Of a stretch of DNA of 64,000 bases, positions 19,449 to 54,626 are shown piece by piece. Origin of the DNA: a virus; the IMG/VR virus record IMGVR_UViG_3300022839_000011, positions 24,701 through 88,700 of that record; one strand, 5' to 3'. Numbering within the stretch: position 1 is the first letter of the stretch; the number at the start of each line of letters is the position of its first letter. The position numbers and the translations under genes were made by a program. Under the pieces are notes generated by a model, which saw only the letters and a list, made by a program, of their open reading frames with translations, had not been told where the DNA came from and did no database searches.

Positions 19449-19709
19449 CTAAAAAAGTGTGTTGGATTTTTTTATATCTTTTTTTACCATTCTTAGCACG
19501 ATTCCCTCTTCTTTTATTTTTTCACATATCAGTGAGGATTTCTTGACAATTTCTGCTAAGGTTTCAATTTCCATATTTTCTTGTTTCGCATATAGTACCA
19601 AAGCATCTATATGCGAAACACCTTTAGATAGCATATCAGCAATATCGTGATGTACTCTTTCCGGTGTTTTTGAAGCTATAAGATTTGCATGGTCTATCAC
19701 GCTGGTCAT
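19449..19709 (-). CDS. 33: gp33 late transcription co-activator
   Basis: IDALVLYA..NMEIETLAEIV..EKIKEEG..L; located upstream of 32. Confidence 0.75.
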   Translation of the reverse strand: MTSVIDHANLIASKTPERVHHDIADMLSKGVSHIDALVLYAKQENMEIETLAEIVKKSSLICEKIKEEGIVLRMVKKDIKKSNTLF

Positions 19710-19906
19710 CCGTTTAGTACCGTGATAGTAGATAGCCAGTTTTCAGCATAATGTTTGGCGGTATTGATGTCATTTATAGAACTTCCTGTTCTTACGTTGA
19801 CGCCACTTGAAGAATAACATTCTACAGTGAATACCCCATCATTTTCATGAATTTCTGCTCTATGCCCAGAGCTGGAGGATTCTTTAAAAAAAGTTTGTAT
19901 TAGCAT
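19706..19906 (-). CDS. hypothetical protein (start at MLIQTF)
   Basis: SD AAGGA; AKHYAENW end resembles 19917..20123. Confidence 0.55.
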   Translation of the reverse strand: MLIQTFFKESSSSGHRAEIHENDGVFTVECYSSSGVNVRTGSSINDINTAKHYAENWLSTITVLNG

Positions 19907-19916
19907 TTCATTTCCT

Positions 19917-20123
19917 TCATATAATTGCCCTATTGCCGTTCGCCCAAGATTTTGCAGCATTTACTACCAGTACAAACGGGCATTCCACATATTTTTCTGT
20001 GTGGAATTTTACACCAACATCATCAAAAAATGATATTGTGTGTGGCCCATCACCATTGATGGATGCGCTATAGCCATTTTCTTTTGTGTATTTTAGTTGT
20101 GAGTTTTCGATATCAGACATCAT
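19917..20123 (-). CDS. hypothetical protein
   Basis: SD and sigma70-like promoter upstream. Confidence 0.55.
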   Translation of the reverse strand: MMSDIENSQLKYTKENGYSASINGDGPHTISFFDDVGVKFHTEKYVECPFVLVVNAAKSWANGNRAII

Positions 20124-20233
20124 GTCTTTCCTTTAAATATTTCTGTGGGGGTTTATACTTTGCATTTGTTAATAAATGCATATGATGTATTAATGTAACA
20201 CTTAGCGGGTTACATGTCAACTATTAATTTAGC

Positions 20234-20785
20234 TTATTGCCAATTATTTTCTTCTAATTCTTCAAGAAATATTCTAACCATATCAAAGCAAACGATTGCT
20301 TCATCAGCAAGCCCATCATGAAGTTTGCTACGGATATTTGCCTTTAATGAATCCAAGTCACCTTCGAATTGGTATCTAAGCGCAGAACCGAAAACAAATC
20401 TTTTCAATATTTGGCCACCAGAAAGATCGCCCATATGATGTACATATACGTGTGAAAGAAGTTTTTCTGCATCACCAGATATACTCAAAATATATTCTTG
20501 GTAAGCTACCGTCGAATCAAACGGAGTTGGAATTTTAAAACCATGTAGTAGTTCTAATTCTTCCAAATCTTTCATTATCGGTATGGATCGTTTTACAGCT
20601 TTGATATCTTCAAATATTCCGAAATTATGTGCATGTTTTTCGAGTGTATCGTACATCAACCACATATTTGAAAGGTAAACATAATACTGGCCTACAGTTA
20701 TCTGGTGCTTCAGCATTTTCGTAATGAATTTTGATTTTTCTGTTCTGGTGTGATGAACTTTTGTTAGTTCTCTTAAATTACTCAT
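20234..20785 (-). CDS. hemO: heme oxygenase
   Basis: LRELTKVHHTRTE (proximal His) and HVYVHHMGDLSGGQIL signature; ATG 20785. Confidence 0.92.
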   Translation of the reverse strand: MSNLRELTKVHHTRTEKSKFITKMLKHQITVGQYYVYLSNMWLMYDTLEKHAHNFGIFEDIKAVKRSIPIMKDLEELELLHGFKIPTPFDSTVAYQEYILSISGDAEKLLSHVYVHHMGDLSGGQILKRFVFGSALRYQFEGDLDSLKANIRSKLHDGLADEAIVCFDMVRIFLEELEENNWQ

Positions 20786-20799
20786 TACTGAAATGTGGT

Positions 20800-21102
20800 C
20801 CTTTTTATTAAAGTTGGGACTTGGGTAATACGGCGTCCCTGACCGCAAGAGATTATGCTGCTAGGCGCATCTCTGGTTTTGCATTAGTATTTGCATTTAG
20901 TGTTTTATTCGCGTTAACCCAGCTTATATCGGGGCAACTCCATCCTGCTTAGTCCGTTTGTCGATCCCATTTCATCCCCAGCATAGATACATTGTTACAC
21001 TCATTTAAGAATAATGATATTAAAATATCACCAATGTATCTATGGTGGAGATGTCGGCTTCGAAGCCGAGTCCAAACCGTATTCAGTGAACTTCAACGTC
21101 AC
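20800..21102 (-). ncRNA. ssrA: circularly permuted two-piece tmRNA; tag ANTNAKPEMRLAA (20853-20894); outer ends approximate
   Basis: Acceptor piece ends ..CATCTCCACCA (21043); intervening segment with TAGATACATTG/CAATGTATCTA stem; coding piece starts GGGGATG (20979); G3-U70 pair; tag ends LAA. Confidence 0.93.
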
Positions 21103-21107
21103 GTAGT

Positions 21108-21115
21108 TATTTATA
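21108..21115 (-). promoter_or_regulatory. late promoter driving tmRNA (and possibly hemO)
   Basis: Exact TATAAATA. Confidence 0.75.
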
Positions 21116-21168
21116 CAAAATGGTGGCTAACCTATGGCCACCGCGTGTTTAAGAAACAACCTTTTTTA

Positions 21169-21765
21169 TCAGAAAGTTAGATTTAGAGATAGCTTTGCAT
21201 TTGTGCTTTCTAGGCCATCATCAAAGCTGCGAACCAGACTTGGTGTCAGTGTAACTTTTGATGCAACGGTTACTGGCACACCAACTTCCAGATATCCGCT
21301 TGTGCGTGACCAATCATTGCTGATATTCCAAGTATAACCAACTTCACCAAATACTGAAATCTGGTCATTTAGTGTATAGGTAACACCAACAGATGGGTCA
21401 AAAGAAAAATCGCCACTTGAAAGGTTGTTATTTGCAGTGGAGTATTCCAACCCAACTGTACCATACGCAACGGTCTGATCGGCAACCGCAATTGCAAGAT
21501 TATATTCACCACGAAGACCAATGGTGTCAGCATCAAGATTGTAGTTAAGTGCAGCACGAACTTCTGCATCAGCAGAACCCAATGAATGTGCAAGCCCAGT
21601 AACACCGACTTCAAAATCTGTTAGTGCATTTTGATTAGCGTCAACAGTAAAATCCATCATTCCAGAGTTTACAGTAAGGCCAAAGGTGGCATTATCAAAA
21701 TCATTCGCCATTGCAGATGTGGCCGTACCAAACATAAGTGCGATTGTTGTAATTGTAGTTTTCAT
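21169..21765 (-). CDS. outer-membrane beta-barrel protein
   Basis: Signal peptide ending AMA, alternating beta strands, terminal Phe (LSLNLTF). Confidence 0.8.
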   Translation of the reverse strand: MKTTITTIALMFGTATSAMANDFDNATFGLTVNSGMMDFTVDANQNALTDFEVGVTGLAHSLGSADAEVRAALNYNLDADTIGLRGEYNLAIAVADQTVAYGTVGLEYSTANNNLSSGDFSFDPSVGVTYTLNDQISVFGEVGYTWNISNDWSRTSGYLEVGVPVTVASKVTLTPSLVRSFDDGLESTNAKLSLNLTF

Positions 21766-21841
21766 TTTATTTCCTTAAATTATATAAGTACCCCATAATT
21801 GAGATACGATGGTTAGTAAAATTATTAGTGATTTGGCAGAA

Positions 21842-22024: not shown

Positions 22025-24172
22025 TCAATACTTAATTTTCATCTTAGACAACTGCAATTCTTTCATTTTTTCGTGCGACAATAGGGTTTCATCCCATACA
22101 GTTTTGGCATCTTTGCCAGTATTGACTTTTGTGGTGTCTTGTACTTTAGCCTCAAACAACATTTTAAGTTCGCTTGGTCCCTTTTTGTATGCCTCATAAA
22201 AGCTACTTGCGCCATTGCCTGTATAAACACCAACCACAAATGGTTTAGTTTTGTTATTCAGTATTGTATGGTACACTTCGGTCAGTCTAATTCTACTAAA
22301 TGGGGGCAACATTATTTCTTTTTCTTTCGACACGCTTGAATAGTTTAATATCGGAATACACTTAGTACCTTTAGGCAAATAGATTTTCATTCGCGTAGAA
22401 TTTGGTTTGTTTCCCATTTTGACATCTGAACTTAATGAGGTGGATAGCCATGCGGGGTCTACGAATACATCACCTGGTTTAAAGTTTTTTTGGCTTGGGA
22501 CTTCACAATTTCGATACACCCACATATCTTCTTCCATCTCTACTGCGTATTCATTATAAAAAGCAAACATGGCATCTGATCGGGGGTCCAATATGAAATT
22601 TCCATCTTTCATAGTAGCCATAGAATTTCTAAGATTTGGATTTATTGACATGAATCCAGAAGCAGTGTAACTTTTGAAAGCTCTTATGGCTTTTTCTTGT
22701 TTGGCTTCTTCCACAGTCAATTTAGATGTGTCTATACTGTTCAAAACACCTTTAAAAATATCATCGAATTTTTTGTAGCCTTCGTTATTTTTTACTACAT
22801 CTATTTTTTTAGAAATGTCTTCGTTAAAATTCACAAATCCGATTGTTCCATCATCCCATTTGGTATCATTATCAGATTTGAAAGCTTCGTTTGTTGTGCT
22901 AATAGCAAATGGCATTTCAAGAACTTTTGCGGACAGAACTTCTCTTTCAAATTGTGTATTTGAAGGCGAATTGTTATCTATTTTCTTCAATTCTTTTAAC
23001 TCTTTAGAAGCCAAATTCGCTTCATATACAGGCATATCTATAGCATCGTTCAATACTTTTTCCCACATTGATTTATTTTTAACACCAACTTTTATTAATC
23101 CATTATCATTAGCCAATCCCATATTAACTATAACTTTTTTCATAGAAGGCGAAATTTCATAGTCATAAACTTGTTTAAATGCTTTTTTGAGATATTTTAC
23201 AACATTAGGATTATCCATCTTTTTTTCTGTCTTACCCATTTTAATCAAGGTATCTAATGTATATGGGTTCATTCTAGTTTTTATTAGGCCAGCAATTGGT
23301 ATGTTATTAGCATCAATTTGGTCATTTGGCGAATAATTTAAGTTAAACTTACCAAGCGGAACTTCTTCAACTTTATCACCAACAACTTCTTTATTTCCTA
23401 ACAAATCAACAACATTGCTGCCGCCTTTGCTCTGAACAGCTTTATTAGAAATGTCATCTATAAGTTTTATATCCGAACTGGCAATCTCATTTCCCAAATC
23501 TAATTTTTTGAATGCAAACAACTTGCTTGGTTTTGTACTCACAGTCTCTTTTTGTCTTTTATACGGGACAGCAATTGTTTCCAAATTTTCACTTGACACG
23601 ATATCTTGTATGTCCATTCCGGTCGGATCAAATTCGAAGTGTTTTGTGAATACAACAGTTTTGAATATTGTTTCTGGTTTGACACTTTTCTTGGTGACAA
23701 AGATGTAATTTCTTGCACCATCTGAAATCTTTTTGACTGGAACTACCCTAAATGTTTGGATGTATGTTTTTTTGATTATTTTTGTTAGAAGACTTTGGTA
23801 TCTTTCTGACCCTGCTTTACTTGGTATGTCAATAATAATACCATCCATTCTATTTTTTATAAATGGATACGAAGCCTCCATGAATTTTAGAAATGTTGCC
23901 AATACTGGTCGGATGTCTGCTGGGGTTTTAAATGACCATGTTCTTTTCTTGACATTCACAATACGATATAGTTCTATCATGTAAACTTTGTCATATGTTG
24001 TCTCTACCAATGACATACCGTAATCGGACCCATTGATAGAAGCAGAAGCATAAATTTGCTTTGGCAGCATAGTATCTTCGGTCATCTGAAACTCAACAGC
24101 GGTGTTAAGTGACTCAAAGAATAATTCTTGGTCTTTGAAATTGATAAAAGACTTCATGTAACTGCGCTCCAT
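22025..24172 (-). CDS. alt: Alt-like virion ADP-ribosyltransferase
   Basis: R-S-E triad: VYRN, WLSTSL, KEKEIMLPP; YTASGF.SINPNLR; MKSF capsid-targeting-like N-terminus; late promoter 24189-24196. Confidence 0.85.
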   Translation of the reverse strand: MERSYMKSFINFKDQELFFESLNTAVEFQMTEDTMLPKQIYASASINGSDYGMSLVETTYDKVYMIELYRIVNVKKRTWSFKTPADIRPVLATFLKFMEASYPFIKNRMDGIIIDIPSKAGSERYQSLLTKIIKKTYIQTFRVVPVKKISDGARNYIFVTKKSVKPETIFKTVVFTKHFEFDPTGMDIQDIVSSENLETIAVPYKRQKETVSTKPSKLFAFKKLDLGNEIASSDIKLIDDISNKAVQSKGGSNVVDLLGNKEVVGDKVEEVPLGKFNLNYSPNDQIDANNIPIAGLIKTRMNPYTLDTLIKMGKTEKKMDNPNVVKYLKKAFKQVYDYEISPSMKKVIVNMGLANDNGLIKVGVKNKSMWEKVLNDAIDMPVYEANLASKELKELKKIDNNSPSNTQFEREVLSAKVLEMPFAISTTNEAFKSDNDTKWDDGTIGFVNFNEDISKKIDVVKNNEGYKKFDDIFKGVLNSIDTSKLTVEEAKQEKAIRAFKSYTASGFMSINPNLRNSMATMKDGNFILDPRSDAMFAFYNEYAVEMEEDMWVYRNCEVPSQKNFKPGDVFVDPAWLSTSLSSDVKMGNKPNSTRMKIYLPKGTKCIPILNYSSVSKEKEIMLPPFSRIRLTEVYHTILNNKTKPFVVGVYTGNGASSFYEAYKKGPSELKMLFEAKVQDTTKVNTGKDAKTVWDETLLSHEKMKELQLSKMKIKY

Positions 24173-24203
24173 ATTTTGTTATTAAAGCTATTTATAAGAT
24201 GAA

Positions 24204-24653
24204 TTATCTAAGTTTAAATTCATCTCTTGTTACACCAAATACGTATTGATCTACCATGTCACCATTTTTGTCCAAAAACGATTCTGACAACACGCCTTCC
24301 TGCTTCCAACCTATTTTGTTTATCATGCGGACAAACTTTTTGTGTGGACTAATTCCGTAAATTTTTCGCAGCGTTTTCATATTTTCAAACATATAATCGG
24401 TTAGATATATCGCAGATGTTAAAGCCTGTTTTGCATTTTTGGTGTCTGAAAACACATTAAGTTTTGCAAGCCAAGGCGTCTCTGGCATCATGTAAAAAAC
24501 CATATCATCTTTTTCAAGTGGAAATGTGATGTTGTTATCCATATCCCTTAACATATCTATAAATATTTCATCTTTTGTCTTGTGTGGGCATTGCATAATC
24601 CATGGATCTATTTTTGCGTGGATAATTTCATATATATGATTGTTATATTTCAT
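24204..24653 (-). CDS. GNAT/RimJ-like acetyltransferase
   Basis: KIGWKQEGVLSESF..G.MVDQYVFGVTRDEF C-terminal motif. Confidence 0.65.
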   Translation of the reverse strand: MKYNNHIYEIIHAKIDPWIMQCPHKTKDEIFIDMLRDMDNNITFPLEKDDMVFYMMPETPWLAKLNVFSDTKNAKQALTSAIYLTDYMFENMKTLRKIYGISPHKKFVRMINKIGWKQEGVLSESFLDKNGDMVDQYVFGVTRDEFKLR

Positions 24654-42519: not shown

Positions 42520-43131
42520 TTAGTCGAAATCCATTTCTTTTTCCATTTTCCCAACAAATATTTTTTTGCCTCTAATACCATTGATAGTTTGGGTGGGCTC
42601 TACTTCTTCAAATGCAAACTCTCTGCCTCGAATTCTGCTAAGAAATTGCCCAGAAGCTTTCCCGAATTTGCCACTACCTACAACTTCTTTTTTGTTGTAC
42701 GATGGATATGCATCATCCCTTTTTGATGTTCCATAGAGATAAGAACCTTTTCCACCCATTGGTATAATCAAAACAGAATCTTGATCGTACTTTCGCCCCA
42801 ATGCAATAAGATCCTTTTCTAAAATACCACCATCAGAACCTTCGACTTTTTGATTGCACACAAAAAAAGATTCTTCGCCAACTTCTTTCTCATTTTCGCT
42901 ACCAAAATTTTCAATGTAACTTCCTTTTATTTTGGTTACGGAATAACCCTTGCCCATCAAATAGGTTAGCATTTCTTTGTTGGTCTGTTTGTTTTGTGCT
43001 TTTGTTTTTTTGTCACGATGACTCGTGATAGTTCCGCATGAATGATTCTGGGTCTTTTGCCAAACCCGCGAAAGTGAAGATTCTTCAAGTTTGTTTTCGA
43101 TCATCTCTGCAATAATTTGCTTAATAGACAT
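42520..43131 (-). CDS. putative internal head protein
   Basis: IKQIIAEMIE..LEESSLSRV; G.Y.E..EESFFV; LGRKYDQDSVL. Confidence 0.6.
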   Translation of the reverse strand: MSIKQIIAEMIENKLEESSLSRVWQKTQNHSCGTITSHRDKKTKAQNKQTNKEMLTYLMGKGYSVTKIKGSYIENFGSENEKEVGEESFFVCNQKVEGSDGGILEKDLIALGRKYDQDSVLIIPMGGKGSYLYGTSKRDDAYPSYNKKEVVGSGKFGKASGQFLSRIRGREFAFEEVEPTQTINGIRGKKIFVGKMEKEMDFD

Positions 43132-43140
43132 TGTGTTCTC

Positions 43141-44484
43141 CTATAGTTCTTCCAAATCAGTATCAAACTGAATACTTGGGGTTGTGGTCTTCCAAAATTT
43201 CAATTCCTTTTTTGCATTGTCTTGTTCAGATTTAAGAGACTTTACCATTTCATCAGTAAGACTCATGATATTAATTCTCAAAAGCCTTTCAATGTCATCT
43301 GCCAGTGCAGTAGTATTTTGTAATATCTGTTCTGACACATCTACTTTTTTCTTGTTTTTGAATATGATGTTATTATCAATAACTTCTTTGATGAACTGCA
43401 TTTTTACATCCAACCATCGAAATTCCTCATTGTATTCCTTGACACGCAAATCAATGCGCTTTTGTAAAATTCCCAACCTATAGTCACAAAAATCTTTGAT
43501 AAGATCGCGTTCATCTGTATACTCGCGTAACTTACCATTTTGATCGATGACTGTCAAGTTCTCTGTTATTGGCTTAGTGAGCCTAAACTCTTTTTCAATT
43601 TTCGCATCATCCCAGTTTGCACTGGTGTTTTGCTTCAATTTGACTTCAAATTTAAACCCATCTTTATCACAAAGATCATCGTAACTTACAATTTCATCTG
43701 ATTCTTCTAGTTTATCTAAAATTGTAACATAACTTTCACGATCAACACCATAAGGAATTTCAGTAATCAAAAGGACTGTTTTTCCTCTTTTTTCGAACAG
43801 ACCTTTACAAAAATATCGGTTTTGTTCTTCTAAATCTTGTACTACAGTTCCATTAAATTCGGGAAATTTAATTTTCAATTTCTTGCTTATTTTGCCATTA
43901 GACAAATATTCTTTACATGCACGAATGATGTCTTTGGTTTCGCGGGGAAGAATGTTAGTAGCAAATCCAGTAGCAATTCCTTTTGTTCCATTAGAGAGAA
44001 CAAGTGGAATTACCGGAATGTAAAATGATGGTGGTTCATGCTCTGGGTCAGAATGCTCTGGTGCAATGTCAATATCTTTGATGTATTTACCAAAATTTTT
44101 ATGTAGCTTAGTATATGTGTATCTTGGTGCCGCTGCTGTTGGCACTAATCGAGTCCCAAAAGCACCACGGCCTTCCACCAAACATACATTATTATTCCAT
44201 TCTGCCGCCATTAATTGTCCAGCACCAGATGCACTTGTTTCGCCGTGCTGGTATCCATAATCTGAGATTGGCCCGCTAATGGCGGAAACTTTTTTAAATT
44301 CTGATTTGCTGTTCATAATAGAAGAATATAGGTAAAAACGCTGAACAGGTTTCATACCATCTATCATGTTTGGTATCGCTCTATTCTCTAAGGTATAAAT
44401 CGCAAAATCTTTCCATTCATTTTTTGCGATATCAGATACATTATATCTTTTCGGGGATTCTTCTTTGATAAAATCTGTTATCAT
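43141..44484 (-). CDS. 52: DNA topoisomerase II medium subunit
   Basis: RAIPNMIDGMKPVQR, YQHGE, AAPRYT (catalytic Tyr), NGTKGIATGF. Confidence 0.97.
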   Translation of the reverse strand: MITDFIKEESPKRYNVSDIAKNEWKDFAIYTLENRAIPNMIDGMKPVQRFYLYSSIMNSKSEFKKVSAISGPISDYGYQHGETSASGAGQLMAAEWNNNVCLVEGRGAFGTRLVPTAAAPRYTYTKLHKNFGKYIKDIDIAPEHSDPEHEPPSFYIPVIPLVLSNGTKGIATGFATNILPRETKDIIRACKEYLSNGKISKKLKIKFPEFNGTVVQDLEEQNRYFCKGLFEKRGKTVLLITEIPYGVDRESYVTILDKLEESDEIVSYDDLCDKDGFKFEVKLKQNTSANWDDAKIEKEFRLTKPITENLTVIDQNGKLREYTDERDLIKDFCDYRLGILQKRIDLRVKEYNEEFRWLDVKMQFIKEVIDNNIIFKNKKKVDVSEQILQNTTALADDIERLLRINIMSLTDEMVKSLKSEQDNAKKELKFWKTTTPSIQFDTDLEEL

Positions 44485-44490
44485 AACGTA

Positions 44491-45291
44491 TTACTCCATA
44501 AATTTATTTAGCGGATTTGCACCCTCGATTCGTTCTTTAGCTATCTTAAAGTATTTTTCATCAAGTTCAATACCAATAAAATTACGATTCAAGTTTTTTG
44601 CTGCAACGCCTGTCGTACCACTGCCAAGGAACGGGTCAAGCACTGTGTCGCTAGGGTTTGACCATGACAAGATGTGGTCTGTGGCGATTTGCAAGGCGAA
44701 TGGTGCGGGGTGGTTGTGCTTGTGTCTGCCTCTGCTTGTGTCTATAACCCAAACGTTGTGACGTGTCCCGAATGCTGCCACAGTTTTTCCGTTAATCGAG
44801 CCATGTAAAGAAACTGGCTCCCCGTTTGCCCCCCTTTTGTGTCCTGTAATTTTTCTACCTACACATTTATTTAATTTGTCTTTGATTATATTTACAGTTA
44901 TTGGGGAAGATTTAGAAAATACAAACATATATTCAAAAGAGTTTTCGTATCTATTTGACGGGAGTGGTATTATGTAGGGCTTGTTCCAAATCATCGTGTC
45001 GTGCAAATTAAAACCACACTCCATTGCCCAAAGCGCCTGTTTAAAACTCGTGCCGGTTTCGCAGCCCTTGATTGTTGCGTCACCTACGATCCACACCACA
45101 ACGCCACCTTGAGTAGTAACGCGATAAAGGTCTGCAATGACAGCCTTCCAGACGTGTTCGCCCCATTGGTCGTTGTTTCCGTTATACGTGCGCAGGTTGT
45201 CATAAGGTGGACTGGTCACGGTAAGATCAACCGACCCATCGGGAATGTTTTTCATCATCTCTAGACAGTCACCTTGCATCAAGTTTATCAT
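44491..45291 (-). CDS. beta-class N4C/N6A DNA methyltransferase (SPPY)
   Basis: TSPPY..HPAPF..DPFLGSGTT. Confidence 0.92.
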   Translation of the reverse strand: MINLMQGDCLEMMKNIPDGSVDLTVTSPPYDNLRTYNGNNDQWGEHVWKAVIADLYRVTTQGGVVVWIVGDATIKGCETGTSFKQALWAMECGFNLHDTMIWNKPYIIPLPSNRYENSFEYMFVFSKSSPITVNIIKDKLNKCVGRKITGHKRGANGEPVSLHGSINGKTVAAFGTRHNVWVIDTSRGRHKHNHPAPFALQIATDHILSWSNPSDTVLDPFLGSGTTGVAAKNLNRNFIGIELDEKYFKIAKERIEGANPLNKFME

Positions 45292-45421
45292 ATTATTACT
45301 CCATAAATTTATTTAGCGGATTTGCACCCTCGATTCGTTCTTTAGCTATCTTAAAGTATTTTTCATCAAGTTCAATACCAATAAAATTACGATTCAAGTT
45401 TTTTGCTGCAACGCCTGTCGT
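44491..45421. repeat. 126-bp identical repeat (44491-44616 and 45296-45421); near copies from 50408 and 51180
   Basis: Identical 3' ends of the MTase genes. Confidence 0.9.
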
Positions 45422-45985
45422 GCCACTGCCGATGAAAGGGTCCAAAACTGTGTCTTCAGGGTTTGACGAGTTCTTAATATATAATTGCATTAAACCAACC
45501 GGCTTTTCAGTGGGGTGCAACTTACATCCAATAGGATTTTGAAACTTGTGAACAGTTTTTGAGCCCATATTTTTAATAGGAAAAGCTGCCCCCTTTCTTA
45601 AAAATAACGTATATTCGCAATTCTTCATATACCATCGGTTAGCTGTTGCATTTTGCTTTTCCCAGACCAAAAGGTTATGAACTTGAAACCCGCACATTAC
45701 AGCAGAAGCCTGTAGGTTAAAAAGGTTTTTTAAGTTTGTCATAATATAGGCGTGACTGTCGGGCTTCATTTTTTGAAAAACAATCGGCATCCAATCTGAA
45801 AATAAAATATCGTTGTGTTGAAATATCTTTCCATTATTTCCGCCAAGAGATTTTGAAAGCGATGGATTACTATTACTGCCGCCGCCAATAACCCTGTACG
45901 GCGGGTCAGTCAACACCATATCAACCGACCCATCAGGGATGGTTTTCATCATTTCAAGGCAATCACCTCGCATTAAGTTTATCAT
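45296..45985 (-). CDS. beta-class DNA methyltransferase (DPPY)
   Basis: TDPPY..HPTEKP..DPFIGSGTT. Confidence 0.92.
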   Translation of the reverse strand: MINLMRGDCLEMMKTIPDGSVDMVLTDPPYRVIGGGSNSNPSLSKSLGGNNGKIFQHNDILFSDWMPIVFQKMKPDSHAYIMTNLKNLFNLQASAVMCGFQVHNLLVWEKQNATANRWYMKNCEYTLFLRKGAAFPIKNMGSKTVHKFQNPIGCKLHPTEKPVGLMQLYIKNSSNPEDTVLDPFIGSGTTGVAAKNLNRNFIGIELDEKYFKIAKERIEGANPLNKFME

Positions 45986-47805
45986 GACAACATAAATTCC
46001 TTTCTTTTGTCGGCTGCTTTACCAAACATCATTTCAAAATGAGTTTCATCATCAATGCCGACAACATCCAATACTGGATTGTTAACAATAACGTCATATT
46101 CTTTAGTCTCAAGCGAACCAAGACCTTTGATATAGCGATGATTATATCCTTTACTACTATTCTTAAACTCCATTGCATCACTATAGTTATAAAACCACTT
46201 TGTTTCATTGCCTTTAGTGGAAATCATAATAGGCGAACGAACAATACCAACACAACCATTTCTTACAAATTGTGGCCAAAACTTAAAGAAGAATGCGACC
46301 AACAAAGAAGCAATGTGATGCCCATCTTTATCAGAATCACACATAATTGCGATTTTAGCATAATTCATATTACTGTAGCTTTTAGGATTATTAATATCCA
46401 ATCCCAAAATAGAAACCAATTCACTTAGCTCTTTATTCTTTAGAACATCAGTTGATTTCATATCCCAAGTATTCATAACGACGCCCCGCAATGGATACGC
46501 ACCAGAAAGCTTAGGGTTTCTAACTTCCAAAAATTTAGAAATAGCCGAATCACCTTCGACTAAAAACAAAGATGCTTGATCAGATGAAGCAGCGATATGT
46601 TTTGCCACTTTTACCTTTTTGAGTTTCTTTTGCGCCACGATTGAACTTCTCAATTCGTCAGCATTTTTCTTTGCTATTTGTGCTTCTATGATTGGCGCAA
46701 TAATATCATCAGCCGCAAACAACTTTTTGGCAAGTAATTTGAAGTCTTTGTTACAATACTTTTCATAGTGCGATTTTACTTCACCAAGTGAATTTGTCAA
46801 TCTTTCTTTTGTCTGACTGTCATATTTTGGATTAACAAAATTTCTGGCAAACGAAATAAATGTGAGACCGTTTTTGACCACGCTTTTGCCGACTTCAATT
46901 TTATGCTTTTTCTTAATCAAAATTAGAAGTTCTTCTACTACAGAGTTCACAATATAGTCAACATAAGTGCCGCCTATCCTTGTGTTTACCCCATTATTGA
47001 AGCTGTTTGAGCGATATCCATCATTTGATGATGTAAAGAAAAAAGACAGATTGTCATTTTTTTCGAGTATTACCGAAGTTCCCTCACCACTAAACATTTC
47101 CGAATATTTTTTGATATCGCGCACTTGAATTTTCTTGCCATTGAACGAAAATGTAATTTCTGGAAATGACATTTGCAGACCTACCAAACGATCTTCTACA
47201 AGCGCGGCAGTATCAAGATCACCAAGAGAATCTACTTCAAACAAGGAAAAATCAGGTGTGAATGATACCGACGTTCCATTACCTGCTTTTTTAGATTCAG
47301 TAACTACAATATTTTCAGCGCCATTAGTACAATGCACTGTAAGGCATTTACCCAATTGCCAAGTAACCCCTTTAAATTCTGATGATACGAAATTAGTACA
47401 AGAGCTACCAACACCATTTGCGCCAATAGAAACCCTATCATCTGTGAAACTTGTCCCTGCATTAACACGTGTCCAAGCGGCAACTGGCCTTTTTATTTTT
47501 TCGCCTTCAGGTGTCACCACTAACTCTTGTGGAATACCAGTACCATTATCTGTTACTGTAACTTGATTTCCTTCGATAGTAACATCAATTTTATTGGCAT
47601 ATTTGTAGTTTTCTCTAATTGCACAGTCAATTGAATTGTCGATGATTTCATCAATAATTTTGTTTAGAGATGGGACATAACAAACAGTTTCCCATTTGCC
47701 GCCTAAAAACCTATCGACATATTCTTTAGATGATGAACCAAGATATAGACCAATTCTCTTGCGAACATGTTCTCTTGGCGACAAAATCTGAAATTCTGGA
47801 GTCAT
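45982..47805 (-). CDS. 39: DNA topoisomerase II large subunit (fused gp39+60)
   Basis: EIIDNSID, DNGTGIP, GANGVG, VEGDSA, PLRG, DSDKDG, KGLGS. Confidence 0.97.
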   Translation of the reverse strand: MTPEFQILSPREHVRKRIGLYLGSSSKEYVDRFLGGKWETVCYVPSLNKIIDEIIDNSIDCAIRENYKYANKIDVTIEGNQVTVTDNGTGIPQELVVTPEGEKIKRPVAAWTRVNAGTSFTDDRVSIGANGVGSSCTNFVSSEFKGVTWQLGKCLTVHCTNGAENIVVTESKKAGNGTSVSFTPDFSLFEVDSLGDLDTAALVEDRLVGLQMSFPEITFSFNGKKIQVRDIKKYSEMFSGEGTSVILEKNDNLSFFFTSSNDGYRSNSFNNGVNTRIGGTYVDYIVNSVVEELLILIKKKHKIEVGKSVVKNGLTFISFARNFVNPKYDSQTKERLTNSLGEVKSHYEKYCNKDFKLLAKKLFAADDIIAPIIEAQIAKKNADELRSSIVAQKKLKKVKVAKHIAASSDQASLFLVEGDSAISKFLEVRNPKLSGAYPLRGVVMNTWDMKSTDVLKNKELSELVSILGLDINNPKSYSNMNYAKIAIMCDSDKDGHHIASLLVAFFFKFWPQFVRNGCVGIVRSPIMISTKGNETKWFYNYSDAMEFKNSSKGYNHRYIKGLGSLETKEYDVIVNNPVLDVVGIDDETHFEMMFGKAADKRKEFMLS

Positions 47806-47920
47806 AGTAATTCCTTTGTATTAAATATAAACATCATAATATATCAAAAACCCAAGAATGTCAATATCATTCTTGGGTTTGATTCACAAAAACTTACTCA
47901 ATTGGACTAGGGACCGATTA

Positions 47921-49219
47921 TCAATTTTTCCACAATCTCAAAATTACGGTGTTGATATTTGTTCCACTTTCACTAAAAGATCCTACAGGCAAAGAACTCC
48001 ATCGCAAATGTTTCCAATTAACATCGTTTTTTTCAGCCCATTCTTTAGTAATCTTATTATGATCATATCTTGCTGTCACTGGCAAAATTGAAACCAATCT
48101 GCCACTGGGCTTCAACCACTTTAACGCGGTTTCGATATGTTGCAAGTAGTGCATTCCATAGAACGGTGGATTCATCACAACACCATCAAACATGGCCGTA
48201 GAAGGCTGGTCTAGGAAATTGCCGATAGTCACCTTATGGCCCTTTGCACGGGCTTCGGCAGCCCTCGTTGGGTCATATTCCACACCCCAAGTCTTGTATC
48301 CATCTTTTACTAACGCATCCATAATGCGACCACACCCACAAGAAGGCTCCAAAATAAGACCATCTTTAGCAACACCAAAATCGTAAATCAGTTGGCTAAC
48401 TACTGATACTGGTGTTGGGTAATATTGCAAATCTTTAGATACAGCAGTAGATTTACGCTTTTCGCTTTGTTGTTCCGCCGCATCTGGTAATGTATCGCCA
48501 TAATATTCGCCCAATGCGCGATTGACATCTAATAGTGTATATTTGTCAAAAATCACATGACAGTTTGAATTTTTAAACCGCTTTAATGTGATGCCATCAT
48601 TTTCAGTTGGTGTTTTCAAAGATTTGGCAATCCATTCACTCAATTCGACATATTCAATAGGTGCTTTGAGTTGATATGAACGAATAGCATTAATAAGATC
48701 GTTGAGTTTTTCACGACCATACCCATACGAAGACAAGTTGCTAATGATTACTCTTTTTGGCAATCCTTCAACACCAATTTTAACTTTACTATGTGACCTG
48801 TATGCAGGGTCCAAATCACAAAATACTTCCGCAAGACCCCTAAGAATATTTCCTCTTGGGTCTTTAATATAATCCCCAAATTCATTTCTGATATTTTGAA
48901 TAGTAAATGATGGTGGGTCTTGAAGCATCTTGTCGATTCTCGCCTTGTCTTTAGCCGTAGCAAGACTAACAATCCATTGGTCATATACCCGTCTCCACGC
49001 AGAACACAATAAAACATGTTCAAGTGTTCTCATAGAAGGGTCTGGTCTTCCAGAACGCCCCCAAACATCTCCACCATAAGAACCACCAATACTAACATTC
49101 ATTAGTATATCTTGTACCGATTGCGCCAATGCATTTTTACTTTCTACTAACGTATCACGCTTCTTTTCATATTCAATTACCCATTCAGAAGGCATTGGTT
49201 TTTTTGCAGGTAGATTCAT
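47921..49219 (-). CDS. DUF4942-like domain plus N6-adenine methyltransferase
   Basis: YYPTP, LEPSCGCG, MNPPF, FSESGT; KRFKNSNCH.IF. Confidence 0.8.
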   Translation of the reverse strand: MNLPAKKPMPSEWVIEYEKKRDTLVESKNALAQSVQDILMNVSIGGSYGGDVWGRSGRPDPSMRTLEHVLLCSAWRRVYDQWIVSLATAKDKARIDKMLQDPPSFTIQNIRNEFGDYIKDPRGNILRGLAEVFCDLDPAYRSHSKVKIGVEGLPKRVIISNLSSYGYGREKLNDLINAIRSYQLKAPIEYVELSEWIAKSLKTPTENDGITLKRFKNSNCHVIFDKYTLLDVNRALGEYYGDTLPDAAEQQSEKRKSTAVSKDLQYYPTPVSVVSQLIYDFGVAKDGLILEPSCGCGRIMDALVKDGYKTWGVEYDPTRAAEARAKGHKVTIGNFLDQPSTAMFDGVVMNPPFYGMHYLQHIETALKWLKPSGRLVSILPVTARYDHNKITKEWAEKNDVNWKHLRWSSLPVGSFSESGTNINTVILRLWKN

Positions 49220-49220
49220 T

Positions 49221-49829
49221 TCATTTCACCTTTTTGGGACGGTTAATGTAAGTACATTTCTTTTCGCCGTTAGAACTTGTCCAATGCGATTTTACCATCG
49301 CAACAAGACTAATTTTTTCACCAGTTGCACAATCAAGGGGCTTGGAACCTTTGTAAACAACTGGGTTGCCTTCAGAATCACGAAGCATATTGGTGTATTC
49401 CGGACCGTACATACCAACATTAGAAAATACCGCAATCAAAGTAAGATCAAATGCGCAACGCTTTCCCAAATCACCTACATGGGAAATGGTCTTGTCAAAT
49501 TCAAAGGTTTGATCTTTTGCAATCTCTGCACCAGCCTTAATTTGGCCTTTTGTTCCTTCAATTGTGTATACTTCACCATCACAGTATACCCACAAATTGT
49601 ACACTTTGGAACCTTGTGTTTCTTCAGTCAGTTCGAAAGGAAGATATTCGCCGCCCCGAAACAAACGATCTGTGTGTTCACACAGATATCCGTCATATGG
49701 CGCATGAGCACGACCGTTACGATCAATTGTGCAGTCAGGATAGTACTCGCGGATAACATCAACAACTGCACGGGGAGTCTTGGCCTCCATCGCGGTCTGA
49801 ATCGCGGCGATATTAGTTGCAAAGTACAT
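49221..49829 (-). CDS. hypothetical protein with C-terminal OB-fold-like region
   Basis: RAHAP.DGY..GGEYLP; HVG.LG.R..D..GN.VVY..INRP. Confidence 0.55.
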   Translation of the reverse strand: MYFATNIAAIQTAMEAKTPRAVVDVIREYYPDCTIDRNGRAHAPYDGYLCEHTDRLFRGGEYLPFELTEETQGSKVYNLWVYCDGEVYTIEGTKGQIKAGAEIAKDQTFEFDKTISHVGDLGKRCAFDLTLIAVFSNVGMYGPEYTNMLRDSEGNPVVYKGSKPLDCATGEKISLVAMVKSHWTSSNGEKKCTYINRPKKVK

Positions 49830-49918
49830 GTCGTATCTCCTAACTGCGTTACCTTATGAAAGTAATTTAGGCCAGAATCCTTGCAGTGTCAATAGAAAAA
49901 AAGAATATTGTCAAAAAA

Positions 49919-50089
49919 TCACACGACCTTATGACAATATTCTTGGTTCTGAAGGCTCACTTTTTCTTTTCTGCGCAAAGCTTTTTTGCTTTTTCCATGC
50001 GAACCAGCCCCTGCACCTTGACGATGAATAAGAGATACGACGAACTCGTTTCTCTCTTTCGGTTTATCTTTTTTGTGTTTTCGTTTCAT
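49919..50089 (-). CDS. small basic protein, candidate ArfA-like ribosome binder
   Basis: RNEFV..GAGSHGKSKKALRRKEK. Confidence 0.45.
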   Translation of the reverse strand: MKRKHKKDKPKERNEFVVSLIHRQGAGAGSHGKSKKALRRKEKVSLQNQEYCHKVV

Positions 50090-50112
50090 GTCTTTTCTCC
50101 TGTATGACAATA

Positions 50113-50403
50113 TTATTTATATGTTGCTGGAATTACTTCTTTCCATTTTAGTTTGCGGTCAATAGATCCTACCATAGCATGATTTTCATATTCATTGGCG
50201 GCGTAAATCATAGCAGACCTGATCATATTTTTTTCTTGTAGCTTTTCAGTTGAGTATAGCTTTGCTTCTTCAAGTGTGTCAAATGTCATACTCACCCTTG
50301 AAGAAGTCGCTGGTTGAAAAAATACTACATTATATCTAACAGCATTATCACGAATTTTTTGTTCGTGTTGATCCATCGGTTTCATTTCGCCTTTTTTGGC
50401 CAT
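50113..50403 (-). CDS. hypothetical protein
   Basis: ORF in operon. Confidence 0.55.
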   Translation of the reverse strand: MAKKGEMKPMDQHEQKIRDNAVRYNVVFFQPATSSRVSMTFDTLEEAKLYSTEKLQEKNMIRSAMIYAANEYENHAMVGSIDRKLKWKEVIPATYK

Positions 50404-50407
50404 ATCA

Positions 50408-51175
50408 TCATTCCATAAATTGATTCAGTGGATTTGCATTTTCGATTCGTTCTTTTGCTATCTTAAAGTATTTTTCATCAAGTTCAATACCAATAAAGCT
50501 GCGATTTGTGTTTTTACAGGCCACACCAGTTGTACCAGAACCCATGGTAAAGTCAAGTACCGTTTCGCCTTCATTTGTGTATGTGCTAATAAGATATTCC
50601 ATCAAATCAACAGGCTTTTGGGTGGGGTGTAGCGGTTTATGTTCTGAACCATATTTCAATACTGAACATGGATAATTGGAAACTGTTTGGCTATATCCTT
50701 TAATTACACCATTTTCACGCTGGAAACCATGCGGGTCATCAATCTTTTTTCTTTGTATATGTACATCTACTTCGATTGTTCCTTGTGGATTGTATGGCAT
50801 TCTTTTTTTTGTTTGTGCCTTATGACCAACAACACCATTCGAAAAAACGCATATGTCTTCGTGCTTTTTTAAAGGCGAATTTGGAGCCTGTTGAAAATTA
50901 CCAGCTTTTGTTTTTTCCCACACCCAACAATATTTAAAATCACGCGCATTACTTGATATAAGAATACTTGTGAATGGCTGTGTAGAAAATAACACAATAG
51001 CACCATAAGGTTTAATAACCCTGTTCAGTTCTATCCACATAGGTTCTAAAGGTATGATTGAGTCCCAAGATAGACTAGTTGTGCCATATGGAATATCGGT
51101 AATTATTGCATCAACACTACCATCAGGGATGCTTTTCATCATTTCAAGGCAATCGCCTTGCATCAAGTTTATCAT
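50408..51175 (-). CDS. beta-class DNA methyltransferase (DIPY)
   Basis: TDIPYG..HPTQKP..DFTMGSGTT. Confidence 0.92.
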   Translation of the reverse strand: MINLMQGDCLEMMKSIPDGSVDAIITDIPYGTTSLSWDSIIPLEPMWIELNRVIKPYGAIVLFSTQPFTSILISSNARDFKYCWVWEKTKAGNFQQAPNSPLKKHEDICVFSNGVVGHKAQTKKRMPYNPQGTIEVDVHIQRKKIDDPHGFQRENGVIKGYSQTVSNYPCSVLKYGSEHKPLHPTQKPVDLMEYLISTYTNEGETVLDFTMGSGTTGVACKNTNRSFIGIELDEKYFKIAKERIENANPLNQFME

Positions 51176-51179
51176 ATTA

Positions 51180-51959
51180 TTACTCCATAAATTGATTCAG
51201 TGGGTTTGCATTTTCGATTCGTTCTTTAGCTATCTTAAAGTATTTTTCGTCAAGTTCAATACCAATAAAACTGCGATTCAAGTTTTTTGCAGCTACACCA
51301 GTTGTGCCGCTGCCCATCGTGAAGTCAAGTACGGTTTCACCTTCGTTGGAATATGTGTTAATCAGATATTCCATCAGCGCGACGGGTTTTTGGGTGGGGT
51401 GTATGCGCCCGACTGTTCCCCGCTCATCTGCCGATATGTGGATCAAATTTCTAGGGTAACGCATACCGTCAGCGCAAATTGTTGTTGATTTTACTTGTGC
51501 GCCATAATTTTCTGATTCTCTCGAACCAGTAGCAACGTAAGGCTTTCCCTGTGTCATTTGCGGGTTGTAATGCACCTGATCGCGATAAAAAACAATTACA
51601 TCTTCTGTTTGCCTTAGAGGCTGTTTTTTAGCATTTAGGTGGCCCGTTGGCCTATTAACCTTATCCCAAACCCAGCAATACTTAAACATCTTGACGTTGC
51701 TCATAATCAACGCTGACGTGAACGGCTGCGAAGCCGTCATTACAATTGCCCCGTTGGGTTTCACGATCCGCTTTAGTTGCGCCCACATTGGCTCAAACGG
51801 TATAACAGTATCCCATTTGCAGGCGGTGGTTCCATACGGCTACGGAGGGTCTACGAGGACCATATCCACCGACGCGGCGGGGATATGTTTCATCACGTCA
51901 AGGCAATCGCCCTGACGCAAATCTGACCCTCGTAAACCCAAGACTCCTTCTTGGCTCAT
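51180..51959 (-). pseudogene. beta-class MTase with an in-frame TAG (51840-51842) at the DPPY tyrosine
   Basis: MSQEG..GDCLDVM..VDPP*PYGTTACKWD; ATG overlaps the HNH stop codon. Confidence 0.8.
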
Positions 51960-52699
51960 GTTAAATAGTCCTTCATATTTTCTTTAACTGCGTCCCATTC
52001 TTTCTGGGTCATGTCGCATTTTGCACGGTTTTCAAACCACGTTAGGAATTGGAGGTTGTCCAATCTGTTACATCCGCCATTAGCGCGCGGATCAATGTGG
52101 TCTATCGTCGGTCTTTTCCATTTGCATTGTTCTGAGTGTAACCACCTTTCATATATGCAGTTGAACTGAGCATCGTTATAAAACTTAAAAACATAAGCTT
52201 TATAATCATCAGTTGTCATGTCAAACCTGCCGCCCCTGCACGTTATGGAACGATTGAGAAATTTAAGCTTTTCAATATCTTCAAACGACAAAAGCCATTC
52301 CGCAGAAACATCAAAGCGAAGGTGGCTGGCCATATTCTTGTAAAGGGACAACTTCGGCATCTTCTTTCCTTTTGCCCAGCTAGTCCTACATTTGCTTGCC
52401 GCGCCTATTTTGGCACGATGCTGATCCGAAAACGGCGCAAGCTTTCCCTTGACGATTGCTATTCCGTTTTGTTCAAGAACTCTCTTCACTCTATGGTGGT
52501 CAGTACTGCACGTTCGGGCCACGCTTCGCAATGTGGTAACATAGGGGACATAAGTAGACAAAATCATTTTATCGATGGTTTTCGCGCCGTCATATGTGCG
52601 CAGGTTATCATTGGGCGGATCAGTTAGTACCATATCAACACTACCATCAGGAATGTTTTTCATGATTTCAAGGCAATCACCTTGCATCAAGTTTATCAT
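51956..52699 (-). CDS. MTase N-terminal stub fused to an HNH endonuclease
   Basis: MINLMQGDCL..TDPPNDNLRTY, then HRAKIG (NUMOD3-like) and TIDHIDP..GG.N..DNLQ..EN.AK. Confidence 0.8.
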   Translation of the reverse strand: MINLMQGDCLEIMKNIPDGSVDMVLTDPPNDNLRTYDGAKTIDKMILSTYVPYVTTLRSVARTCSTDHHRVKRVLEQNGIAIVKGKLAPFSDQHRAKIGAASKCRTSWAKGKKMPKLSLYKNMASHLRFDVSAEWLLSFEDIEKLKFLNRSITCRGGRFDMTTDDYKAYVFKFYNDAQFNCIYERWLHSEQCKWKRPTIDHIDPRANGGCNRLDNLQFLTWFENRAKCDMTQKEWDAVKENMKDYLT

Positions 52700-52945
52700 A
52701 TTATTACTCCTTTTAGAAAACATAACACAAGAAATAATATTTGTAAACATGCATTTTATGTCTTGACAAATATAAAAATCCTGGTATAATAAATGTTAAT
52801 GGGATGAAGATAAAGTAACCTAGTGATTTTTATAAATTTAACAATAAAATTCTATATATTTAAAATCAGCTTCCAAAAACCTACAAATGTAAAAGGCTGC
52901 AAAATATCACAGCCTTTAATTTTCATATACATATTTATACTAATT

Positions 52946-53239
52946 TCAGTAAACATTTCCTGTCTTGTGTATGCCCACAGTGACTTTGACTTCTTCGCCC
53001 AAAATAAAATATCTATCTGATGCAGTTCGCAAGTTACTACTAAATGCTCTTACCAGCATGTCGTCGCCTTCAATCAACATTACATTTCTACCATCTGATG
53101 TGCTATGGACACAAACATATGTTGTTGATTTTTCTGCTTGTTTGATAATAGGCCCGTTGTTTTTTTGACAACCCGATTCTATACAATCTGCATAATCCCA
53201 TGCTTCTTTTCCACAAGAACACCCCCTATCATGACTCAT
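52946..53239 (-). CDS. hypothetical protein
   Basis: Cys-rich N-terminus; coupled in operon. Confidence 0.5.
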   Translation of the reverse strand: MSHDRGCSCGKEAWDYADCIESGCQKNNGPIIKQAEKSTTYVCVHSTSDGRNVMLIEGDDMLVRAFSSNLRTASDRYFILGEEVKVTVGIHKTGNVY

Positions 53240-53675
53240 TATATTTTGTGCTCTCTTTTAAAGTTTTCATTCTACGATTTGAGCAGTCTTGTAAAAACAA
53301 ATCTACATTTTTGCTTCGCTTACCTACACGGTAACAAAACTGACCACCAAAGTAAACGAGAAATTCGCTTGTGTAATTACATTCAAGTATAATTGTATAT
53401 GCATCTGTCATACTTGAACCACCCATACCACCATGTCCTAATGCGGTAGATGGCCAAGATTCTGCAAACATGGCAAAAACACAAAAATCACGAGTTGTTG
53501 GACGCCTTGCAAATTTTACTCTTTGTTCTTTAGCCAAAATTCTAGCTTCCGGTGTTTTTGCATTTAGCATAGCTTCATGATCATATGAGGCATATTCAAT
53601 ATCACTAAAACCTTGATACTGTGCGTGTGCCATACATTCATGTAGATCACGAATAGGATTTTCAACGTAATTCAT
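53229..53675 (-). CDS. hypothetical protein
   Basis: F...W.STALG.GG.GG..MT.AYT motif. Confidence 0.6.
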   Translation of the reverse strand: MNYVENPIRDLHECMAHAQYQGFSDIEYASYDHEAMLNAKTPEARILAKEQRVKFARRPTTRDFCVFAMFAESWPSTALGHGGMGGSSMTDAYTIILECNYTSEFLVYFGGQFCYRVGKRSKNVDLFLQDCSNRRMKTLKESTKYNES

Positions 53676-54076
53676 TTTGTTTCCTCTGCATTAATTACAA
53701 TTCTACCATGGGTAAGGGTAGTTGTGACACCGTTATGGTCTTCTGTCCAAGTTTTATTCCATGGCCCGCGAATAGTAAAACACCAAGATGTCTTATCAGC
53801 TATGACTCTATGATTTCTTTCGCGCCGAGTGATCTTAGGAATAAAACTGCGTTCATATGGCATATACTCTGGATTACCATTATATAATTTTTCTTCGTAC
53901 ATGTCACCTGAAATGAACCATGTGAATGCATTAAAAGCGTGGGTGTGATGTGCTTCGCGGCAACCTTTATTAAATTTCAATAATGCAACACTACATAGTG
54001 ATTTAATCTCGAATAAAAAATATGCATCAACTGGCGATTCTGGACCACCATCTTTTGTCTTAGTTAAAAATTTCAT
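53672..54076 (-). CDS. cupin-like protein
   Basis: HHTHAF....G...E..HRV..W....RGP. Confidence 0.6.
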   Translation of the reverse strand: MKFLTKTKDGGPESPVDAYFLFEIKSLCSVALLKFNKGCREAHHTHAFNAFTWFISGDMYEEKLYNGNPEYMPYERSFIPKITRRERNHRVIADKTSWCFTIRGPWNKTWTEDHNGVTTTLTHGRIVINAEETK

Positions 54077-54188: not shown

Positions 54189-54626
54189 TTATGGCGAATC
54201 TTTTGGGTTCTTGGCAGGGCTTACCTGAATAATTTGTAGGATAAGGTTTAGGTGTCTCTCAGCCCAAGATAAAGTGTCGTCTTTATCCATGCTGGAAACC
54301 CAAATACGACCTGCCTCAGTGTCCCAACGGGACCACTTTTCAATGGCGTGTGTTTGGCAACCTACCTGTAGTGTGTCATGAGTATAGCCTACTTGCCACT
54401 TATCAATCTGCATAGTCTTTAGGTAAACCATATCCCCGTAAGCTCGTAGATCGGCACACTCAAGATCGGCACCAATAAGATCAGCACCACGAAGACTTGC
54501 ATCACGAAGATCAGCATCACGAAGATCAGCATCACGAAGATTGGCACCAAGAAGATTGGCACCACGAAGATTGGCACCACTAAGATTGGCGTTTGGACCG
54601 ATTGCGTAACCATTAACGATATTCAT
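54189..54626 (-). CDS. pentapeptide-repeat protein
   Basis: ANLSG/ADLRD repeats; LQVGCQTH..W. Confidence 0.9.

Follow-up and report, generated by a model that had tools for sequence, protein, structure and literature searches.

Methyltransferases are a main phage counter to bacterial restriction and rank among the most variable phage genes. To our knowledge, the origin of this variation has rarely been resolved at the nucleotide level. Near-identical phage genomes have been found to differ by the insertion, deletion or replacement of orphan methyltransferases, and these differences were interpreted as adapting the phages to the restriction systems of their hosts (Bellas et al. 2020, PMC7468147; Murphy et al. 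2014, PMC4190342). In Type III mod and Type I hsdS genes, the central recognition region is swapped by recombination while the conserved flanks are kept (PMC1557822, PMC3311624, PMC7394358), and in T4-type phages PeSL promoter/stem-loop cassettes mediate modular shuffling (Arbiol et al. 2010, PMC2839356; Comeau et al. 2014, PMC4122927). Free-standing HNH homing endonucleases include MobA of T4 (beside gene 60) and MobE (PMC2790892), and HNH insertions in actinophage methylases have been described as the 'ShiLan domain' (PMC11855218). Here we describe orphan DNA methyltransferase genes in a 64,000-nucleotide (nt) stretch of viral DNA, the window, which comprises bases 24701-88700 of the 88.7-kb IMG/VR virus record IMGVR_UViG_3300022839_000011, a record estimated to be 42% complete. 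The source is a T4-like marine phage whose gp39 is only 47% identical in amino acids (aa) to that of the nearest isolates, Vibrio schizoT4 phages, and a 10.5-kb region of it gave zero megablast matches against 50,697 phage records. We consider it likely that the genes form a multi-locus set of beta-class methyltransferases, distributed over three slots and exchanged by recombination at conserved blocks.

Two relatives, G001 (23.5 kb) and G002 (15 kb), are IMG/VR contigs matched by an exact 41-mer from the 3' end of these genes; a search of IMG/VR with the fully degenerate back-translation of the tail returned only the same two. Their backbone is 97-99% identical to the window (98-99% for gp39 and gp52). 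All features described here lie on the minus strand, in the transcription order orf97, an HNH open reading frame (ORF) with a methyltransferase N-fragment, D, C, orf96, orf202, a DUF4942-methyltransferase gene, gp39, B, A and gp52. The cassettes A, B and C and the limits of the outer slots are:

52946..53239, minus strand: orf97, upstream limit of slot 1, kept in G001
50408..51175, minus strand: methyltransferase C, 255 aa, DIPY, last cassette of slot 1, PF01555
50113..50403, minus strand: orf96, downstream limit of slot 1, kept in G001 and in the distant relatives L027 and L028
45982..47805, minus strand: gp39, topoisomerase II large subunit, upstream limit of slot 3, 98-99% nt identical to G001 and G002
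45296..45985, minus strand: methyltransferase B, 229 aa, DPPY, first cassette of slot 3, PF01555
44491..45291, minus strand: methyltransferase A, 266 aa, SPPY, second cassette of slot 3, PF01555
43141..44484, minus strand: gp52, topoisomerase II medium subunit, downstream limit of slot 3, 98.97% nt identical to G001 and G002

The three genomes are filled differently:

Window (G000): slot 1 (orf97-orf96), HNH, the interrupted D, and C; slot 2 (upstream of gp39), empty; slot 3 (gp39-gp52), B and A
G001: slot 1, C' and B'; slot 2, A2, with divergent ends; slot 3, D' and A'
G002: slot 1, outside the contig; slot 2, empty; slot 3, A'' alone

The set is thus not fixed: near-identical relatives differ both in which cassettes they carry and in where these stand. 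B and B' are 95% identical and occupy different slots, slot 3 in the window and slot 1 in G001. Slot 2, occupied in G001, retains in the window only a remnant of an A2-type gene:

47884..47908, minus strand: A2-type tail remnant, 25 nt, aligning with the last codons of G001 A2 (…SPLSKFL*)

The pair A and B lies, as the first-pass annotation had placed it, between the topoisomerase genes. No methyltransferase is present between gp39 and gp52 in eleven distinct contigs with a 54-69% identical gp39. The two genes are directly adjacent in most of these; three of the eleven have small unrelated ORFs past gp39, and in one of these three gp52 lies beyond the end of the examined stretch. The slot-3 genes are therefore a lineage-specific insertion. 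The distant relative L027 has a single C/D-type gene before orf96, with the tail …ERIENANPLGNFME, and the shared tail of the cassettes may derive from such a resident C/D-type gene.

A, B, C and the D body are all full-length members of PF01555 (N6_N4_Mtase), scoring 149, 125, 109 and 108 bits against a curated cut-off of 26.7 (E-values 2.4e-43 for A, 6.4e-36 for B and 5.8e-31 for C). Enzymes of the beta class carry motifs IV-VIII, then the recognition domain, then motifs X and I-III. This permuted order is present here: motif IV occupies residues 27-30, as SPPY, DPPY or the unusual variant DIPY, and motif I (FxGSGTT) is represented by GSGTTG some 45 residues before the C-terminus. Relatives in the PDB include CcrM, DpnA, MboIIA, RsrI and PvuII; N4-cytosine methyltransferases are among those of A, whose SPPY motif would make it possibly an N4-cytosine enzyme. 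The middles between the motifs had at first been taken for unrelated. They are instead distant homologues falling into three subfamilies, A (SPPY), B and C/D (DPPY), with 24-28% aa identity between the subfamilies and 46% between C and D. The whole 88.7-kb record contains six PF01555 matches. Two further genes of the family, F and G (232 and 231 aa), stand in tandem just upstream of the window (record 23248-24638), between frd/td and the primase gene. Both have divergent N- and C-ends, and they served as an internal baseline for family members that have not been homogenised.

Where in the genes have crossovers fallen? The last 87 nt cluster by slot (mean 2.9 differences within and 7.6 between slots, permutation P=0.009, on nine partly orthologous cassettes) and not by cassette type (P=0.26), and the adjoining 45 nt show the reverse pattern, clustering by type (P=0.002). 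With the last ~90 nt tracking slot and the adjoining 45 nt tracking type, crossovers map to the shared 3' end. The tail of B is that of its neighbour A (0 differences) and of slot-3 type, whereas B', with a slot-1 tail, differs from B at 8 positions and from its neighbour C' at 4; a private A>C change is shared by the tandem pair A' and D'.

Exchange has also reached the 5' end and the interior of the genes. Across its first 91 nt, through the TAT of SPPY, D' matches the N-end of A at 100%; from there on the gene is D-type, and an A-type N-end thus meets a D-type body exactly at DPPY. Between A and A', identity is 100% in nt 1-295 and in the last 180 nt, and only ~45% in the interval:

44680..44985, minus strand: segment of A replaced in the sister alleles A' and A''; no nt match to G001 or G002, both in-gene flanks 100% identical

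The segment is bounded by a W.K block and an HP..FP block, and going by the beta-class motif order it would be the recognition domain. The nearest relatives of this segment of A, the proteins P0122, P0123, P0133 and P0146 (63-76%), have C-ends only 44-50% like that of A, and those proteins whose C-ends most resemble that of A (74%) match its recognition domain at only 41-45%. Compared separately, middle and end thus have different nearest database relatives and incongruent histories. A natural chimera, the metagenomic protein P0011, combines an A2-type N-half with a C/D-type C-half. It had also been considered that the part of A rich in guanine plus cytosine (GC) was its recognition domain; this was wrong, the N-half of A having 49% GC and the recognition domain 42%.

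The 3' ends are alike well beyond what the protein demands. All four genes end in NR.FIGIELDEKYFKIAKERIE.ANPLN.FME (A at 44491, B at 45296, C at 50408, D at 51180), as had been noticed at the outset, and the identity reported between two of them is an exact run of 126 nt within the coding sequence of A and B, or 128 nt counting two bases past the stop. Over the last 34 codons, 23-33 of the 29-33 conserved residues use the identical codon, where codon usage predicts ~15-17. Across the 16 codons before these (motif I), pairs of different type lie at expectation, except for the neighbours A and B (11/15 against 5.6 expected). In the first 28 codons all tested pairs are near expectation, with 9-12 identical codons of 18 at the N-end where 8.3-8.5 are expected. 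This pattern indicates that, within the genome, only the last ~90-130 nt have been homogenised at the DNA level. Of the four starts listed in the first-pass annotation as MINLM(Q/R)GDCLE.MK.IPDGSVD, those at 45291 (A), 45985 (B) and 51175 (C) stand; the one at 52699 belongs to a 34-codon fragment fused to the HNH ORF and is not the start of D. A recurring junction between copies was likewise borne out, as a 22-mer, GGAGTAATAATATGATAAACTT, found three times exactly where shuffled sequences gave an expectation of 0:

44491..44625, minus strand: shared 3' end of A, including the 126-nt run identical to B
45281..45302, minus strand: junction 22-mer, copy 1, between B and A, exact
51165..51186, minus strand: junction 22-mer, copy 2, between D and C, exact
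52689..52710, minus strand: junction 22-mer, copy 3, ribosome-binding site and start upstream of the first slot-1 cassette, exact, in a non-coding context

The last codons of a cassette, ATG GAG TAA, place GGAG seven bases ahead of the next ATG, so a cassette recombined in through its tail or N-end would bring a ready ribosome-binding site and be translated at once. The start of B overlaps the stop of gp39 (ATGA) and gp52 starts 7 nt past A, which puts the cassettes within the topoisomerase transcription unit.

Slot 1 of the window contains, besides C, an HNH element and gene D (51180-51959), whose own N-terminus is divergent and GC-rich and whose reading frame is interrupted by a TAG in motif IV. 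The module is compared here with L036, a phage contig of 59% GC:

52598..52699, minus strand: methyltransferase N-fragment, 34 codons, …TDPPNDNLR, fused in frame to the HNH gene; similar over its first 86 nt to the slot-1 N-end of G001 C'
51956..52597, minus strand: HNH homing-type endonuclease gene (PF01844, phrog_1035); the fused ORF is 51956-52699
51843..51959, minus strand: spare methyltransferase 5' end 'N-term2', 39 codons, with an ATG that overlaps the stop of the HNH gene; 100% nt identical to L036 through the TAG
51840..51842, minus strand: in-frame TAG, belonging to a 6-nt insertion within the DPPY codons of D (GAC CCT CCG TAG CCG TAT)
51180..51839, minus strand: D body past the in-frame stop; the frame stays open; 47% GC, its last 135 nt (slot-1 tail) 37% GC

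The HNH domain match is weak (PF01844, E-value 9.7e-4, 19.7 bits, under the curated cut-off of 21.4), and the gene matches phrog_1035 (endonuclease VII, 2e-10) and three HNH phrogs. Homologues occur in Pseudoalteromonas phage H101 (Shandongvirus H101), Vibrio phage VnaP, five IMG/VR contigs and three bacterial genome records, including Firmicute phage or prophage regions; the gene is absent from slot 1 of G001. Segment 52597-51840 is 92% nt identical to L036, rising to 100% across the last part of the HNH gene and the spare 5' end; past the TAG, 28 of 55 codons are identical, 18 differ synonymously and 9 non-synonymously. The window as a whole has 36% GC and the element 45%: the HNH-D module (45-47% GC) is foreign to this genome. 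That the D body ends in the 37% GC slot-1 tail, and that the left junction lies in the slot-1 N-end, indicates that the whole module was captured via the shared ends.

The contexts in which homologues of this element sit point to motif IV as its target. In nearly all HNH loci (L036-L041, L044, L045, L023 and L024) an upstream methyltransferase 5' fragment is cut at or near motif IV. At seven further HNH loci a second methyltransferase start follows the HNH gene, and then a 6-9-nt insert bearing a stop (TAG, TAA or TGA) in or just past DPPY; all these inserts are multiples of three. A D-type body continues in the same frame in five of the seven, while in L039 it is soon frameshifted and in L044 internally deleted. 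Decay is seen at three HNH loci, as body frameshifts in L037 and L039 and the deletion in L044. D itself may be a dead gene, be expressed by read-through, or be expressed by a hop across the TAG, and we rank none of these above the others. The record has 10 tRNA genes, among which there is no suppressor tRNA for this TAG; the codons around it, CCG…CCG, are compatible with a +6 hop, and other loci have CCG…CTG or CCG…CTT.

Two other ways of accounting for the HNH gene were set aside. Carriage by a group I intron or an intein finds no support in an Rfam intron match within 43000-54000 (none at E<=1) or in intein motifs, which the HNH ORF lacks, and D has its own start; other RNA families likewise gave no match around the HNH gene. 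A Type II restriction-modification pair, with the HNH enzyme as the nuclease and D as the methylase, does not fit the recurrence of the HNH gene with truncated methyltransferase 5' fragments and a broken target in unrelated phages. The last cassette of the same slot, C, is 95% identical to C' of G001 except for 11 substitutions clustered in nt 67-88 (window 51089-51109), around motif IV, where C reads DAIITDIPY and C' reads DMVMTDPPY; these substitutions may confer resistance to the resident HNH enzyme.

We therefore propose the following route for the exchange of cassettes. The conserved 5' block up to motif IV, the 3' block of motifs I-III with the short tail, and the borders of the recognition domain would serve as crossover sites for ordinary homologous recombination in vivo, both between paralogues of one genome and between co-infecting relatives. 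Whole cassettes would thereby change slot or be gained, lost or duplicated, and N-ends or recognition domains would be exchanged. Because the ATG GAG TAA end of one cassette would act as the ribosome-binding site of the next, a cassette inserted by a crossover in the tail or N-end could be expressed immediately. A mobile HNH cassette aimed at motif IV would have imported the foreign D-type gene, and probably adds double-strand breaks that stimulate exchange; this homing element would be a driver in addition to the shared ends on which the first reading of the sequence had concentrated. The enzymes would shield phage DNA from host restriction.

Several observations weigh against this proposal or narrow it. 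With the last 55 residues of A as query, thousands of proteins are matched, many 75-89% identical over most of the stretch. Methyltransferases of A, B and C/D type from unrelated metagenomes start MINLM.GDCLE… and end …FIGIELDE.YF.IAKERIE..NPL..F.., and a Vibrio siphophage methylase starts MINLMKGDCLEVMKGIPSGSIDMILTDPPY. At the protein level the constant ends are ordinary family motif blocks, common in many metagenomic and phage sequences, and since they are family-wide their presence alone is no evidence for an adapter role. The likeness of the N-ends within the window is at the protein level only, with synonymous identity at chance. Crossovers also lie within genes, at the recognition-domain borders and in the A2/C-D chimera, which limits an account built on shared ends, and the gain or loss of A2 in slot 2 took place without them. 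The comparison comprises three genomes of this clade, all metagenome assemblies, and the slot and type statistics draw on the nine cassettes named above. The earlier idea that the constant ends act as recombination adapters thus survives in part: slot-following tails, mosaics and moved cassettes largely support exchange at the conserved ends, and there is no sign that these ends, being family motifs, evolved as adapters.

Could the same picture arise with no exchange at all? That the genes are old tandem duplications which have diverged, their ends alike only through catalytic and S-adenosylmethionine-binding motifs, strikes us as scarcely credible. The same terminal protein motifs do occur in many unrelated family members, and the synonymous sites of the N-ends do lie at chance level in the window, but the account is contradicted by the differing sets and positions in the sister phages, by tails that track slot and not type, by exact runs of 126 and 91 nt on genes otherwise 24-28% identical, and by the clean A/A' mosaic and the conserved synonymous sites of the last 34 codons. 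We regard it as very unlikely, too, that the shuffling is an artefact of assemblers mis-joining co-occurring strains at the repeated ends. The three genomes are indeed metagenome-assembled, and the 126-nt (A/B) and 91-nt (A'/D') repeats are of k-mer size; yet the links from B to gp39 and from B' through C' to orf96 run through sequence whose exact repeats are <=43 nt, and the 126-nt repeat joins immediate neighbours only, so that an incorrect path there would remove a gene instead of relocating it. Each of the three contigs, moreover, comes from a different sample and is internally coherent, and mis-joins could yield neither the replaced recognition domain of A/A' nor the private single-nucleotide polymorphism of the A'/D' tails.

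Other alternatives accept exchange and differ in its cause or its purpose. The HNH enzyme might do most of the work, through cuts at motif IV and co-conversion of the flanks, with little general recombination at the shared ends. In nine loci of unrelated phages and prophages an HNH homologue adjoins methyltransferase 5' fragments truncated at or near motif IV, several chimera junctions fall exactly at DPPY, the HNH-bearing genome is the one whose C has 11 clustered motif IV substitutions relative to C', and other phages are documented to have nucleases at the boundaries of exchanged segments (PMC10055350). Such a mechanism may contribute, but as the principal cause we find it unlikely: it leaves unexplained the many crossovers placed well away from motif IV, in the 3' tail or at the borders of the recognition domain, and the differences between the cassettes of G001 and G002, whose available sequence has no HNH gene. 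A bolder view, to which we would give a similarly modest place, is that the array is a dedicated diversity generator, in which the HNH enzyme would cut the common motif IV sequence, repair would draw on paralogous or co-infecting copies via the shared ends, as in antigenic-variation cassette switching, specificities would be continually re-sorted, and ribosomes hopping from CCG across the TAG to CCG would still translate the broken D at a low level. The enzymes might, finally, have nothing to do with restriction and serve regulation of the phage's own genes, packaging or the exclusion of competitors, their turnover being neutral drift in a hyperplastic region. The cassettes have no assigned specificity or host restriction system, and plastic regions of T4-type genomes undergo frequent neutral gene flux (PMC2839356, PMC2993671). 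Against this, no variable genes of phage metagenomic islands are more frequent than orphan methyltransferases, which have been shown to protect other phages from restriction (PMC7468147, PMC4190342), and selection on specificity would be expected to leave just the pattern seen, a new recognition domain in a gene otherwise 100% conserved; we judge a role outside anti-restriction decidedly improbable.

Two other features of the region are:

47921..49219, minus strand: DUF4942 and class-I methyltransferase fusion, 432 aa, PF13708 4e-28, 97.4% nt identical to G001
47836..47880, minus strand: hairpin overlapping a TTGACA-17-TATTAT promoter-like site upstream of gp39, resembling the PeSL motif

The DUF4942 fusion, which does not belong to the shuffled set, has a class-I S-adenosylmethionine (SAM) methyltransferase domain with an NPPF-type motif. 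The hairpin is a perfect 12 bp, with TTGACA in its loop and 3' arm and TATTAT 17 nt on, and it adjoins the A2 remnant. Its likeness to PeSLs, drawn by analogy from PMC2839356, is suggestive; promoter and terminator scans gave nothing above chance, and the window has no second copy of the motif at <=3 mismatches. Another variable spot between the sister phages is a pentapeptide-repeat protein (window 54189-54626, 145 aa), which differs in repeat number from its counterpart in G001 (L016 13707-14246, 179 aa). In the record before the window, at 19109-21774, an HNH-type ORF (329 aa) adjoins a ribonucleotide-reductase-like ORF with an intein-like end.

What the locus offers is a set of mapped crossovers, at motif IV, at the recognition-domain borders and in the last 90 nt, together with a junction that would make any incoming cassette translatable. 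Because the natural alleles A and A' differ in nothing but the recognition domain, they allow a direct test of specificity swapping, and the locus ties a mobile endonuclease, apparently aimed at a catalytic motif, to the import of a foreign methyltransferase gene.

With the orphan methyltransferases of phage metagenomic islands it has in common that near-identical genomes carry different methyltransferase genes. It differs in having several loci per genome with a homogenised 3' end and an identical inter-gene junction, in the occurrence of one cassette in different slots, and in crossovers that can be mapped to conserved blocks within the genes. The relation of A to A', with the recognition region replaced and the catalytic flanks nearly identical, resembles allele exchange in mod and hsdS. 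Those, however, are subunits of bacterial restriction-modification systems and often phase-variable, whereas the genes described here encode stand-alone beta-class enzymes of a lytic phage that lack a partner endonuclease, and movement here extends to whole genes. PeSL cassettes belong to the same phage group and likewise consist of short conserved repeats that flank variable genes and are substrates of homologous recombination for insertion, deletion and replacement; they are intergenic regulatory motifs, whereas the repeats flanking our cassettes are coding ends with a 22-nt ribosome-binding junction, and are not PeSLs, the one PeSL-like motif standing beside slot 2. The HNH element recalls MobA, MobE and the ShiLan domain as a mobile HNH gene in or beside a conserved gene, spread between phages, with its target interrupted at a conserved motif. 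It is distinguished from them by being a cassette with a spare methyltransferase 5' end and a 6-9-nt stop-bearing insert at motif IV, placed within a multi-cassette array. The process is already known in outline, and the locus is a clear worked example of it; particular to this phage is the combination of several slots whose coding 3' end is homogenised, a junction ready for translation, the occurrence of one cassette in more than one slot, a clean replacement of a recognition domain and a captured HNH cassette apparently targeted to motif IV.

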